Assembly: GCA_044892505.1 (NCBI GenBank)
Contig: CM097884.1
Coordinates: forward strand, 119,537,468-119,600,000
DNA length: 62,533 nt
Source of the DNA: Schmidtea nova
Lineage: Eukaryota
Direction: 5' to 3'
This document shows, one piece after another, positions 22,165 through 51,030 of the stretch (position 1 is its first letter; the number at the start of each line of letters is the position of its first letter). A model generated the notes under the pieces. It was given only the letters and a program-made list of their open reading frames with translations. It made no database searches and was not told where the DNA came from. A program made the position numbers and the translations under genes.

Positions 22165-22400
22165 TAGTGATAGCGTAAGACCTTCCATCGGCAGCGCGAA
22201 CCCGTTAAGGAAAATAAATAGGGAGTAGTTCCAGCAATGAAGCTCATTTGCCCATCATTTCCCGCCACCGTATGCAGTTCCAACCTAGCTAGTTAGGAAA
22301 TAGTTAGGAGCGTATGAGTGTGATAGTCTTTTTATGTAAGGTTATGGGTAAAGGATCCATAGTACATATAATTCCAGTTTCAAAACCCACCTATAAACCC
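22165..22400 (+). ncRNA. Conserved structured 3' module of the orphan family, copy C
   Basis: Shares AGCGTAAG.CCTT..ATC.GCAGC, GGGAGTAGTT..AGCAAT..AGCTCA..TGCCCATCATT and TTCCAA blocks with 44020-44270 and 50793-51030. Stems are re-paired with different sequence. Confidence 0.55.
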
Positions 22401-23862
22401 AGCACAATATATTTCAAGAACATCATTCTAATCTTCTGGTGCATTTCAATCAAACAAGTATGATTGAATGCCAAACCCATAATAATCCATTTACAAGCAA
22501 TAAAACTCGAGTATAGAAAAGACGGACAATTTCTCTATTCTTTTCTGTACTTGAGTTTTAGAGCCCAGTCAATAGATGATGATTGATTTTGTTTTTAATT
22601 ATACTGTTGTTTACAAATGTGAAAATATTTTTAAATTAATCTTAAAAATGATTTTTTAAGAAAATATTATTAAAATTATAAAAAATTATGTTTTTAAATT
22701 TTTTTATAATTAAAAAAGTTAAATGTTTTACGATATTTCATGGAATTTAAAAATGATGATATTTAGTTTTAAATTATTTCAGCTATAAAAAATGAGAATA
22801 AACAAAATCGAAAACAGTAGATAAAAATGTAAAGAAGTTAAAAGATTTTCAAACAATTTTGTTTAAATTCTGCTTTATTTTTACAAATTATAATAATATT
22901 TTGCTTAAATTAATTATTTATTGTTTGAATTTATCTTTTTTGGATGCTTCAAAACAGAGCCTAATGAAAATGAATATTATTTACCCAGAAATTCAATTTC
23001 ATCCAAAATATTTAATGACATTCGAGATCCGGAATAGTTAGTCAATCAGAGAAGAAATGACAACATTTGCAAAAATATCATAACAAAAAAGCTATTAATC
23101 TTGGTTAATATATTTAGTAAGTATTATTCAACTCCAGTTATTTCATGTCAAGATTATTGCAGCAATTCATAAATAATAATGAACCGATTCGGAAAATATA
23201 AAACGTGTTCTTTTTTTTGAAAAAAAAATTAAAAAGAAAGATTTTCCCAATGATATAAACTTAAAAGTTGAAAAATAAATTTTGCGGTATTGGAACAAAA
23301 TTAACAGAAATGTCGTTGGATATTTAAAATCACGTTTAAGACAATTAATTTATTAATAATTGCGCGTAAATTCTACAGTTTGTGACATTGGGATGAACAG
23401 GAAGTGGGGAAAGTAATATTTTCAATTCTTTTGATTCCACTGATGTGACGCAATTAAAATAAATTGTTGCTATATTTGTTGAAAATTTTTCCTTCGGTTT
23501 GATTGGGGTTTTTCGCAATTTAATTTAAATATTTTAATTAAAACATTGCTTTGAATTTTTTTTTAATTTTCAACTATTAAAAAAATGTCAAAAAAAATTT
23601 TAAGAAATTATGTTAAGCATAATGCAAGTTAGCTGATATGCTAACGTCATGTTCTAGAAATTTATTGTCAATATTTATGGAACTTATTCTTTGAATACTC
23701 ACATGTTTTATAACGTCTAACAGGACTTTCAGCATGGATTTGCACAAGTAATAATTGTTAAAAGTGTACTGTCATATAAGTACATTGTCTTCTAATTATT
23801 AGAATCTATTAGAATCTAATATAAATTAGTATTGTTATATTTTATTTAAGACACCCTATATG

Positions 23863-24678
23863 CAGGTGTGAGCTGGAGCCGGCTCGGTCCGGCTCGCGCG
23901 AGCCGGTTGTTAAAATTTTTGAAACTCAGTGAGCCGCTTGTTAAATTAACCCTAAAACCAAATATAAGCCATTTTTGGATCTTGTTGGGCATCCTGTAGC
24001 TTACGAGCAGCTACTGCTATGTGGAGAGCATACCCAGCGTTGTATAAACATTTTATCCAGTCCAAATCAAATTCAGGAATGGCCAAAAGATTAGCTAATA
24101 CACATTTTATTGAAGATTTAGCTTTAATGATAGATATCTTAGAAGAATTGTCAATACTATCCAATGCGCTACAATCAAGAAAAATTACCATATCTAAAGC
24201 TGATCAATTAATTAAGCGTTCAATAAGAGCTATAGAACTACACAAGAATGATAATTTTGGTGTCTATGAAAAAAAAAGTTTAAAATTTAATTTCATCAAA
24301 TGAGTTCAAATGCATACCATTTGATTACAATAATAAATTTGTAGCTCTTTCCAGAGAGAATCACAAGTTAGCAGCAGAAACAAGGATAAGAAGAGGGCAC
24401 AATAATGAACAAGGGTAAATGAACAAGAGGGCACTGCAAATGAACAAGGCATATGGACTCTACATTAATTAATTAGGCATATACATAGCATAGTATGTTA
24501 AATTTGGAATTTATCAGTTTTTTTGTGCAATAAATATTTTGTTTAGTTATTTTGTGCAATAAATGTTTTGTTATATATATATTTTATACTGTACAAAAAT
24601 AAATGAAGACAATGTACGCATTTACCGTTTTTTTTTAAATAGCGAGCCGGTTGTTCAAAATTTGGCAGCCCACCCCTG
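23863..24678 (+). mobile_element. Internally deleted hAT element with a ZNF862-like transposase fragment
   Basis: Imperfect TIRs CAGGTGTGAGCTG / CAGGGGTGGGCTG; TSD CCTATATG / CCTCTATG; fragment [24 protein letters not shown]...[22 protein letters not shown]. Confidence 0.85.
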
Positions 24679-25786
24679 CCTCTATGACATTTGCCTTTCA
24701 CTTACAAATACGCCTTTAGGCTACGAATAGAGTCATAGGATAAAGACGTCGAGAACAGTACAAAAAGCAATACATAAATTCTCAAATATAGATATATATT
24801 TATATAATCTTAAAATCCATAATTCATTTCATAAAAATCCCACAAATTAACCCATAAAATCCTTTTTGCAATATACAACATCCATCTCATTCATTAGTAA
24901 CATCCATATATAATACTATACAAAATTCCATCCATTTATCAACACACACACTTGATCAGTGCGTTCAATAACGCTCATCTGCATCATGCATACTTAAAAT
25001 ACACGCAAGAAATTCACTCATTCCGCATTCATCATTAAACCACCCATTTTACTCGATCTCATCTCATGCATGCAGTCTTTATAGTATCAAACTTGTCCCT
25101 ACATCTCTAATAGTATATTCGATTTATAAATTCGCAACATGTATCTTCCTATAGTTATGATTCTATTAGTAGATTACTATTTTTGTTGCAAATTTTTTTA
25201 TGGTTATAACATCATAATATTATCATACGAGGGAAATAAATAAAACTATAAACATTATAAGTTTACCATTTACTCAAATGTTGCCTAATTGATATCTATA
25301 ATTCGGGAAGTGTACTACCATGAAAAAATCTACCGAGTATAACATAACTCAGAATACTTGTTATGTAGATTGTCGTTCAACAAAATTAGTACTAGATATA
25401 GGAGTACAACTTAAGCAGAAAATTCGAGTCAAACGAAATATTAACCCCATCAAGAAACGAAAAAGAAAAAACATTATTATTAATTCAATGTATTGCTAAA
25501 GAAGTCGAAATTTGACATAATAACAGAAATTGATCAAATTTGTTTTTAATTCCAAACGAAAGGATCATTTGCAAGATAGTCATAAATATCGCAATAGAAT
25601 GACTTGTACGATTTCATTTGACGAGATAAATTCCAACGAGAGAATCATTAAATCTTCAATTCTAAAGTTAAAATGTAAAAGGCTAGATAATTTAATATCT
25701 TATTCTTGCTTGTCGAACGGCCCATATCGAGAGCTTCTTCTAAATAGCTAGCATCTAAAACTAGTATCTAAATCATGAATGAAATA

Positions 25787-49546: not shown

Positions 49547-50571
49547 ATAGTAGGTATGAGAGAAAGGAAATCAGAGTTATCGAAATAATAGTCCACATCC
49601 CGTTTTGTTGAGGTAATTGGAGTATATATGCATGACCATGTTCACCATGAAATTCAACGACAATGTTTGATTTTAATTGTAAATCGACAAAAGGAACTAA
49701 AGGGGAGGAGTAAAGCCAAGAGAATGTCAGAACCAAAGAAACCGCCTACAATAATTATTTTATCATAACCATGTCATTAAAACCCATAACTACGGATCTG
49801 GCCAGAGATTTTTCAGAATCATGAACGGCCACTCTTGCAGGATGACGAAATACCCTGCTTCAGCCTTCACAGCCGACTTTGTGTACCCGGCAGACACTCT
49901 CAAGTTCATCGTAAAAACACCAAGTGATGTTCCTGGGTGACATATCATCCAATTTTCTGGAACAATCTTGACCGCTGAGTTCCTAAAGATGGGACGCTTC
50001 GTTTTCAGTGTGTCTCCATCGTCTAAAGCTGCGGATTCCCCTCAGTCTGTCTGGATCTCTGAACTCATGTTGACAAACTATTCATATAAATCATTTATAT
50101 AAATGTTCAAATGTACAATATTGTAATAGTAGGTAGATGTGAGGCATATAGAACAAATGAAAATGCCGCCAAGGGGGGCCCTACTGTCATGCGTGAAAAT
50201 CATTAGACTGTAAAGGCGTAAAAATCTTTCACGCGCAAAAATTTTTTTAACTACTGTTGATGTGTTAGTTGTATGATGGTTATTCAACATGGAGTTTACG
50301 CGATGTTCCGATTAGGGTTACTCCTTCAACATAAAACTATAACCCCGCGCTAGTACCCGTGATTCGTCCCTAATTGCTTGTCACGTTGGTGATGACTGGC
50401 AGGTGAGCTATTTCCCCTATTGCCCCTACGAGTTCATTCTGATCGATAGAAGGTATTATTGATTTTTGGCTGGTGTCCCTCTATTTTAATTGTTTATAAT
50501 GTATCTTTCATCATACTTTACACGTATTCCCATCATTCATCAATTAACAAACTCAAGAACATAAATTACAT

Positions 50572-50778
50572 TTATCGTAGAAAAACATTTGTGTCTATCA
50601 GATTAACTAATTGCTGCTCGGATAGACCGCTTAGTGAAGTAGGAATAAGCCATGTCCGTCTTACTTCCTCCATCTCTAACGCTTGACCATTGATCTTTCC
50701 CTCAAGTAATCTAATCCTTCGCTGGAGTTGCTGTTCGGCATTCGTTTCGACTTTTGTATAAAGTTTATCCATCTGAAA
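50572..50778 (-). CDS. Short orphan coiled-coil ORF downstream of the copy B 3' module
   Basis: MDKLYTKVETNAEQQLQRRIRLLEGKINGQALEMEE shows heptad-like spacing and is preceded by TTGTTTCAG, an acceptor-like sequence, at the ATG. Confidence 0.4.
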   Translation of the reverse strand, partial: FQMDKLYTKVETNAEQQLQRRIRLLEGKINGQALEMEEVRRTWLIPTSLSGLSEQQLVNLIDTNVFLR

Positions 50779-50792
50779 CAAATACAAGGGTA

Positions 50793-51030
50793 GTGTGGCG
50801 TTTTGGATGGGTTAAAACAAACAAATATAAACGCTCTAGGGATGCCTCCATCCAAGACCAAACATAAAATGCTTTCGTGACACACAAGCACCCTCGACTA
50901 TTTCCCTGGAATAATCGAGTTGGAAATGTGCAAGGTGTTTGAACAATGATGGGCAGGTGAGCTCTATTGCTAAAACTACTCCCCATTTATGTTCACGGGT
51001 CCATTGCTGCAGATAGAAGGACTTACGCTT
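50793..51030 (-). ncRNA. Conserved structured 3' module of the orphan family, copy B (degenerate second copy at 50365-50455)
   Basis: High identity to 44020-44270, with a paired change in the hairpin (AATGATCGAG versus AATAGTCGAG). Confidence 0.6.

Follow-up and report, generated by a model that had tools for sequence, protein, structure and literature searches.

In HIV-1, HIV-2 and avian retroviruses, the U5-PBS region combines an 18-nt primer binding site (PBS) and a helix immediately 5' of it with a motif further upstream that can pair with the 5' strand of the primer T-arm, and with a bulge complementary to anticodon-loop positions 33-36 (PMC11181671, PMC3185550). The same sources provide precedent for a primer activation signal (PAS), an A-rich loop and contacts between U5 and the T-arm, and the role of the PAS is contested even in HIV-1 (PMC3185550). 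Yeast Ty1 also requires a 5' RNA fold to start reverse transcription, and Ty1 and Ty3 make extended contacts with the primer T-arm (PMC4974528, PMC5371799). Extended primer-template contacts are known in a few retroviruses and in yeast Ty elements, and are still debated in HIV-1.

The planarian Burro / GYPSM1 elements occur in thousands of copies with an internal region of about 23 kb. They encode a single ORF of about 5,000 aa with CCHC knuckles, a mononegavirus-like fusion protein between gag and PR, RT, RNase H, IN and ankyrin, as well as BIR, MATH and BCL2 domains (PMC6431247). In the sections concerned with these elements, that account deals with protein domains and makes no mention of an RNA fold in the LTR, LTR ORFs or the identity of the PBS (PMC6431247). 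Our literature search found no paper describing an RNA fold in Burro-type LTRs; the original Burro description lay outside this search and may treat the LTRs.

Here we analysed a 62,533-nt stretch of the Schmidtea nova genome (the window), in which a structured RNA module had been predicted from three copies, A, B and C. The module forms the last 240 bases, at the 3' end, of the LTRs carried by Burro-type giant Ty3/gypsy retrotransposons. It shares with the retroviral U5-PBS region an 18-nt PBS, a helix directly before the PBS, a T-arm-complementary motif and a bulge that could pair with anticodon-loop positions 33-36, the last match not being significant. In contrast to these retroviruses, its host is a gypsy-type element that uses tRNA-Pro, and there is no sequence similarity (no Rfam match).

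Host element and position of the module

The original prediction placed the module 3' of an ORF. This framing overlooks the setting of the module, which is the LTR end and precedes the PBS. Of 71 5' LTRs examined, 70 have the module immediately ahead of a PBS for tRNA-Pro, which would make it 5'-leader RNA. The PBS is a full 18-mer complementary to the 3' 18 nt of the tRNA, had 647 exact matches compared with 0 in the control, and is matched by tRNA-Pro genes present in the genome. This differs from the bipartite PBS of Ty1/Ty3 and the 5' pseudoknot of Ty1, since the fold described here is wholly upstream of an undivided PBS (PMC4974528, PMC5371799).

LTR ends were checked at 20 fetched loci, the window's own copies being 5'-truncated. 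Both ends were recognised at 16 of these, and 15 of the 16 have TG...CA ends with an exact 4-bp target duplication. In paired-LTR copies, LTRs that are 98-99% and 99.9% alike flank gag-pol, and these copies carry the PBS, gag knuckles, fusion glycoprotein, PR, RT, RNase H, IN and ankyrin; the domain order PR-RT-RH-IN was found in a paired-LTR copy. The long frame comprises 5,079 aa with Pfam matches to zf-CCHC, Monjiviricetes_fusion, RVP, RVT_1, rve and Ank, and the fusion glycoprotein is in frame between gag and PR. In this organization, in the size of the internal region and in copy number the elements resemble Burro / GYPSM1, whereas BIR, MATH/TRAF and BCL2-like domains have no Pfam match in the long ORF (PMC6431247). 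RING/TRAF-like text was seen by eye in a separate ORF downstream of the long ORF. The internal part of one paired-LTR copy had no match to the module model.

The TG...CA ends, 4-bp duplications and paired LTRs rule out a Penelope, SINE or tRNA-like 3' end. Penelope-like ORFs beside some loci are neighbours. Members of a divergent family (F) might represent a module-only SINE. Their upstream sequence is common within subgroups over 0.5-1.2 kb; neither a 5' end shared by all nor a duplication emerged, and a PBS was seen behind 0 of 51 loci.

What the window holds are decayed LTR remnants (Table 1). The predicted motifs were located correctly, at 22172-22388 (+) for C, 44266-44025 (-) for A and 51022-50803 (-) for B, and beyond these the window contains three clear module copies, matched at 50329-50463, 56950-57112 and 27468-27627, and one weak copy. 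A PBS is missing from the window copies, in which helix-breaking changes are present; they are likely inactive remnants.

Table 1. Module copies, LTR remnants and associated features in the window
Feature	Position	Strand	Remarks
LTR remnant C, 5'-truncated	21464..22404	+	Broken copy of LTR ORF inside
Module copy C, decayed	22171..22404	+	Ends at LTR-terminal CA; PBS absent behind
PAS-like 7-mer of copy C	22198..22204	+	Complementary to tRNA-Pro 50-56
Domain 3 of copy C	22271..22314	+	Enclosing helix, CCAA bulge and apical hairpin; core of the original prediction
Module copy, divergent, family F	27468..27693	+	Clear match
Module copy, weak, heavily decayed	29129..29330	+	19 bits, E about 0.001
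LTR remnant A, 5'-truncated	44016..46202	-	
Module copy A	44016..44274	-	3' end approximate; PBS absent behind
PAS-like 7-mer of copy A	44244-44238	-	
LTR ORF in remnant A	45207-44616	-	Frame broken by frameshift
LTR remnant D, abuts B	50239..50793	-	Carries module copy D
Module copy D	50463 to about 50240	-	Top of domain 2 missing; clear match
LTR remnant B, 5'-truncated	50794..53012	-	TATA box, structured intron-like region, LTR ORF
Module copy B	50794..51030	-	Final LTR bases missing; PBS absent behind
PAS-like 7-mer of copy B	51002-50996	-	
LTR ORF of remnant B, 195 aa	51339..51926	-	Predicted long helices and arginine-rich helix
TATA box of remnant B	52950-52941	-	
Module copy, divergent, family F	56950..57177	+	Clear match

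Fold and covariation

The module is about 240 nt long and has four domains, of which domains 2, 3 and 4 are proposed to be hairpins joined by short linkers. Domain 1 has a UUCUA loop, domain 2 contains an invariant 4x6 internal loop, and GNRA tetraloops occur in 15 of 16 lineage representatives. An AUAAA sequence is found in domain 2 of most lineages; its absence from 3 of the 16 representatives excludes it as a universal poly(A) signal.

All nine helices named in the original prediction pair at each position. The covariation that it deduced from three copies is weak when taken alone: A and B are 92% identical, so that the comparison covers two lineages only, and folding single copies gives modest z-scores (B -1.8, C +0.3, A -2.6). 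It was borne out by an alignment, built without structure, of 16 lineage representatives from elsewhere in the genome, in which 93% of cells are paired and 22 of 42 pairs show two-sided change. Two helices are well aligned, the predicted hairpin and its enclosing helix. The hairpin has 93.8% of cells paired and two-sided change in five of seven pairs; for the enclosing helix these values are 98.4% and three of four. Compensatory events on the same branch numbered 7.8 in the hairpin (null mean 0.16) and 5.0 in the enclosing helix (0.10), values reached by 0 of 2000 runs of a lenient null. An all-pairs covariation test returned just 2 of 24,976 pairs, at E about 0.05. The predicted helices are real, as are those of domains 1-3. 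A distal stem, also predicted, did not align column by column; it is present when the last domain is folded by itself to minimum energy. The blocks taken to be single-stranded are partly paired. An H-type pseudoknot seen by eye at the 3' end of A, B and D is not conserved across lineages.

The closing stem of domain 4 spans the LTR end and pairs UUUAUG with CA and the spacer UAAA. It is paired in 96.9% of cells and recovered by RNAalifold, with no same-branch two-sided change among the 16 representatives. The loops of domains 3 and 4 are able to pair by at least 4 bases in 17 of 17 sequences. A contact between them is a weaker guess, as it is not significant (p 0.075; 226/2000 in a second test) and is absent in family F.

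Complementarity to the tRNA primer

The module contains a near-invariant 7-mer, GRACCCG, that is complementary to tRNA-Pro positions 50-56 (the 5' strand of the T-arm) in 69 of 70 copies, and in this resembles the retroviral PAS. In HIV-1 the equivalent distance from motif to PBS is about 60 nt, whereas here it is 207-258 nt with three conserved helical domains between. No other match to any stretch of tRNA 1-57 is as well conserved as the 7-mer, which falls on the segment expected from retroviruses; for this region and segment, chance matches arose in 25/3000 and 1/3000 trials of two nulls. When the whole tRNA is considered, the match is unexceptional (39/500, or 137/300 before one alignment gap was moved). 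The two common changes in the motif are both G-U compatible with tRNA-Pro, with the qualification that 5 of 7 transitions would be wobble-compatible regardless.

In 70 of 70 cases the tRNA is the stronger pairing partner of the motif and the PBS the weaker (mean -13.0 versus -7.5 kcal/mol), and four of the motif's bases pair with the PBS too. It is masked by weak PBS pairing, and not by a downstream strand as in retroviruses. GRACCCG is retained in family F, and its first position is U in one old divergent copy (L451) and A in another (L439). No family with another primer tRNA, in which the 7-mer would be expected to change with the primer, was found among 18 candidates. Another weaker guess is that the CCAA bulge pairs with the UGG anticodon loop, a match that is not significant (912/3000). 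In this one animal genome, dozens of diverged lineages retain both the four-domain fold and, more than 200 nt from the PBS, the motif complementary to the T-arm. Outside the module, only the promoter and patches of the ORF can still be aligned between the LTRs of different lineages.

Possible functions

There is support for the proposal that the structured RNA is functional. Four functions were listed with it (ribozyme, IRES or re-initiation element, exonuclease block, replication signal), and the last fits best. We hypothesize, with moderate confidence, that the module is a large 5'-leader scaffold that grips the tRNA primer a second time and starts reverse transcription. The LTR has a conserved CCAAT/TATA promoter, and transcription is predicted to start behind it, about 430 nt into the LTR, which would place the module within the 5' leader; both the start site and the R/U5 border are predictions. 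Domains 2, 3 and 4 could fold as three linked hairpins that carry the upstream GRACCCG next to the PBS. Annealing of the tRNA 3' 18 nt to the PBS would free the 5' strand of the T-arm, which could then pair with GRACCCG as a primer activation signal. The closing stem of domain 4, as the first template opened by the polymerase, would gate initiation. The extra contact would differ from that of Ty1/Ty3 in involving the freed 5' T-arm strand (PMC4974528, PMC5371799). Two elements fall outside this explanation and count against it, namely the invariant internal loop in domain 2 and, in domain 1, the UUCUA loop.

Alternatively, the fold may be a packaging or dimerisation signal, recognised by Gag and with the domain 3 and 4 loops pairing between two genomic RNAs. 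We consider this unlikely, although it could coexist with a primer scaffold and would suit the leader position, the size and conservation of the fold, its GNRA tetraloops and the ability of the loops to pair. Retroviral packaging signals lie mostly downstream of the PBS, whereas the module lies upstream of it and is also part of the predicted spliced RNA of the LTR ORF. Moreover, the loop pairing is neither significant nor kept in family F, and complementarity to the tRNA would have no explanation. In Ty1, the 5' region does unite Gag binding, dimerisation and priming signals (PMC4974528).

A more elaborate version of the primer scaffold, in which the fold would act like a T-box RNA in selecting and activating the primer, is likewise doubtful. 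After the PBS and the PAS-like motif dismantle the T-arm, the UUCUA loop of domain 1 would replace the T-loop against the tRNA D-loop, and the CCAA bulge or an invariant CACCUG would read the anticodon; the fold might be switched by the arginine-rich protein of the LTR.

That protein could instead bind the module as a response element controlling export or polyadenylation, by analogy with Rex/RexRE and Rec/RcRE. In 12 of 12 aligned sequences, at 21-71% identity, the LTR ORF has retained a basic arginine-rich helix, and the domain 2 internal loop and AUAAA might be read in the same way. HTLV-1 RexRE and HERV-K RcRE are large stem-loop RNAs in the LTR served by an element-encoded arginine-rich protein, and they act from the 3' LTR, whereas the closing stem of the module needs a spacer present only behind the 5' LTR; there is no homology between them. 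The LTR protein has no homology to Rev-like proteins, no homologue (one search was limited to near lengths) and no fold match. Some PBS-bearing LTRs keep the module and have no such ORF in the stretch examined, the AUAAA is not universal, and repeated hairpins within the predicted intron that lies upstream of the ORF are better placed for such a role. We regard a response element as quite improbable.

An IRES or re-initiation element for the ORFs behind the LTR is disfavoured and very improbable. A multidomain RNA of this length between two ORFs, with a possible pseudoknot-like contact, would be in keeping with it, and its size overlaps that of type 6 (IGR) IRESs (PMC13273307). However, no reading frame begins at the fold, and at the 3 loci checked each of the three frames is closed no more than about 35 codons beyond the LTR end. 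The next ORF starts 296-538 nt past the PBS behind 3-32 upstream ATGs, and in 20 of 20 copies a splice-acceptor-like YAG precedes its ATG by 1-6 nt. The tRNA primer would occupy the site right after the fold, and no Rfam IRES matches. Type 6 IRESs are defined by two or three nested pseudoknots with L1.1 loops (PMC13273307); the module has at most one unsupported loop-loop contact, and it is followed by a PBS and closing frames.

A self-cleaving ribozyme (disfavoured) or exonuclease-blocking fold is the least probable function: the fold is compact, with invariant loops and a GNRA tetraloop, and LTRs of plant retrozymes are reported to contain ribozymes (PMC4918200), but cleavage would presumably sever R from the PBS and prevent strand transfer. 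Not all copies have the pseudoknot-like contact, and Rfam covariance models, including those of known self-cleaving ribozymes and group I/II introns, gave 0 matches in the window at gathering score and nothing relevant at E up to 5 in positions 43000-54000.

Wider occurrence and other LTR features

Outside this genome, pattern matches from viruses (2) and from metagenomes (80 of at least 118) were scored with the module model, which matched 0 of them. A twister identity was considered for an upstream hairpin element and dropped, as it had no Rfam match. Among the matches displayed from four contig sets, no GT..AG joint was seen; depth in these sets is no measure of copies or expression. The module represents an RNA family without a counterpart in Rfam and can serve as a sensitive marker of Burro-type LTRs. 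It also provides a record of evolution and a small substrate for in vitro work on whether PAS-type contacts are general. Burro-type LTRs also carry their own genes and further folded RNAs.

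Conserved fold of the 3' module

The module is a real conserved RNA structure. The motifs named in the original prediction were located, and all nine of its helices pair at every position. Its comparison covered two lineages only, because copies A and B are 92% identical, and the covariation it claimed holds with more copies. For a wider comparison, 70 loci were clustered at 94.5% identity, and one representative of each of the 16 resulting lineages was aligned with MAFFT; the tested structure was itself drawn from this set. In that alignment 93.3% of cells pair and 22/42 pairs show two-sided change (0/500 shuffles), while slid partners used as a control give 33-45%. 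A compensatory-event test, with a tree from non-helix columns and a lenient null, found 5.0-7.8 same-branch events in four helices versus null means of 0.10-0.35 (0/2000). The same test found zero in the closing stem, and 1.0 in a loop contact between domains 3 and 4, a value that the null reaches in 226/2000. Under a stricter all-pairs test (39 sequences), two pairs reached E about 0.05, and each falls inside a proposed helix. RNAalifold recovers domains 2 and 3 and the closing stem, with domain 1 paired with the primer binding site (PBS) instead, and single copies fold with only a modest advantage over shuffles. Between lineages, the alignable parts are only the module, the promoter, ORF patches and one intronic hairpin; in the divergent family F, the module is the sole sequence common to all 22 loci.

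Domain 1 is a short hairpin with a UUCUA loop and is followed by the 7-mer GRACCCG. Domain 2, a long hairpin, contains an invariant internal loop (4x6) together with a GNRA tetraloop, the latter present in 15/16 representatives in five variants. Domain 3 is the originally predicted core, with an 8-nt bulge ending in CCAA. Domain 4, a long and variable hairpin, includes the predicted distal stem, and in its closing stem UUUAUG pairs with the LTR-terminal CA and spacer. Because that stem uses spacer beyond the LTR end, domain 4 is complete only 3' of a 5' LTR.

Host element and copies

Thirty B-type loci share an end point directly 3' of the module. Both unit ends were recognised in 16/20 loci fetched with long flanks. 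These units are solo LTRs: they measure 2.5-2.9 kb, start with TGTTG, have CA-type termini and, in 15/16, are flanked by an exact 4-bp duplication. One copy has paired LTRs, 98-99% alike, enclosing pol and nested insertions. A second has 3,244-bp LTRs and a 22.9-kb internal region with a 5,079-aa frame encoding CCHC knuckles, a mononegavirus-type fusion protein, protease, RT, RNase H, integrase and ankyrin repeats, a domain content that fits Burro/GYPSM1 as described in PMC6431247 and makes a freshwater planarian the likely host.

A model built from loci outside the window finds six clear module copies and one weak copy within it; the window's copies are 5'-truncated LTR remnants, with no PBS 3' of any. 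For each subtype, DNA searches of the genome yielded between about 200 and 3,400 initial candidates, of which 40 were scored; these totals are not copy numbers. Remnants carrying the module often lie 0.1-2 kb apart (loci L417, L422, L424, L425 and in the window), and some clustered remnants are cut directly 5' of it, possibly reflecting targeted or nested insertion.

Features located in the window
Feature	Position (strand)	Remark
Clustered module-bearing remnants	50239-51030 (-)	copies B and D
LTR-encoded protein	51339-51926 (-)	
UGUACAUA-loop hairpins, three in tandem	52056-52180 (-); 45341-45463 (-)	
CUUCCAC/GUGGAAG hairpins, repeated, with ~75-nt multi-helix element	52550-52770 (-); 45860-46200 (-)	no Rfam match
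Second-ORF remnant	12514-12924 (+)	no match in Pfam scan
Transposon and gene debris	13309-13854 (+); 15696-16761; 18763-20307; 36845-41143; 47053-47833	nuclear-receptor zinc-finger fragment; broken gypsy-, hAT- and BEL-like remnants (transposons by eye)
Rhabdovirus-type nucleocapsid gene fragment	52996-53301 (-)	Pfam PF00945, E 7e-17

Primer tRNA and position in the RNA

An 18-nt PBS, the complement of the tRNA-Pro 3' end, lies six bases past the 5' LTR (647 exact matches; control 0). The tRNA-Pro genes occur in tandem arrays; the isoacceptor examined is UGG. These arrays (L191-L215) consist of 308-bp units with 1,106 pattern matches, and 2/18 scanned genes carry a TAT anticodon. The module lies directly 5' of the PBS in 70/71 PBS-anchored loci examined; in the exception, L178, just the module's 3' half is left, and the complete module is present in two relatives. 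Of 18 loci with other sequence past the LTR end, judged by eye, 10 have a mutated Pro site and 3 a partial duplicate, while the other 5 are broken or unrelated; none represents an other-primer family in which the 7-mer could be seen to change with the tRNA. One lineage (L448, L449, L452, L453) has a partial duplicate of LTR end and PBS ~200 nt 3' of the true PBS.

In 5/12 upstream loci a conserved CCAAT/TATA promoter lies 2.4-2.9 kb 5' of the PBS, which is ~400 nt inside the LTR in those with a known LTR start; TATA is nearer in three and absent from this range in four. A promoter so far 5' of the PBS would place the module within the genomic RNA's 5' leader.

Proposed role in priming

GRACCCG, which resembles a primer activation signal (PAS), lies 207-258 nt upstream of the PBS and is complementary to tRNA-Pro 50-56, with all seven positions pairing in 69/70 copies. 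No other match to tRNA 1-57 is as well conserved. Its match to the T-arm segment, picked beforehand from retroviral work, is exceeded by 25/3000 random and 1/3000 permuted segments; against the whole tRNA it is exceeded in 39/500 (137/300 before one gap was moved). For 70/70 copies the PBS is a weaker pairing partner than the tRNA, and two invariant positions are compatible with the tRNA and incompatible with the PBS. Family F retains GRACCCG, the UUCUA loop, the CCAA bulge and UUUAUG, and lacks both halves of the loop contact.

A U5 segment with a PAS is a known kind of element; one of such size, architecture and host was absent from Rfam and the literature searched, a coverage outside which the original Burro description falls. 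We consider it somewhat probable that the module is a scaffold for starting reverse transcription. The PBS would pair with tRNA positions 59-76, setting free the 5' strand of the T-arm (50-56), which would then pair with GRACCCG; three hairpins with short linkers could set GRACCCG beside the PBS. A mechanism of this kind is proposed for the PAS and U5 stem of retroviruses, though the role of the PAS is disputed (PMC11181671, PMC3185550). As with the HIV A-rich loop, the CCAA bulge fits anticodon-loop positions 33-36, a match within chance (912/3000).

Alternative functions

A packaging or dimerisation signal is possible and could coexist with priming (PMC4974528). The module is also a possible target of the LTR-encoded arginine-rich protein, in a Rex-like manner; the arginine-rich helix is kept in the LTR ORF, but intronic hairpins are likelier targets. 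An IRES is disfavoured: reading frames close shortly past the LTR end, and the next ORF (recognised in 20/30 loci) has YAG just 5' of its ATG in 20/20 and is preceded by 3-32 upstream ATGs, which points to its being reached by splicing. The module also falls outside the type 6 IRES definition given in PMC13273307. A ribozyme is likewise disfavoured, since self-cleavage would sever the template and no model matches; the original prediction had found no fit by eye to the hammerhead, HDV, twister, group I or group II consensus, and an Rfam comparison of the window gave zero matches.

Other features of the LTRs

The LTR-encoded protein (187-204 aa; also in L123, L130, L139 and L155) shows 21-71% identity between lineages, retaining an invariant WFxP motif with the arginine-rich helix, and has no homologue among 1.84 billion representatives. 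An acceptor-like AG lies directly 5' of its ATG in most copies. The UGUACAUA-loop hairpins, whose loop we take to resemble a Pumilio element, sit in the predicted intron 5' of this ORF and are candidate binding sites for the protein; similar ones occur in two other lineages. The CUUCCAC/GUGGAAG hairpins occupy the same intron-like region. In some lineages (L336, L337, L338, L344), a second ORF of 158-211 aa lies upstream of the first. The nucleocapsid fragment adjoins LTR remnant B at its truncated 5' end, a junction between endogenous mononegavirus sequence and an LTR.
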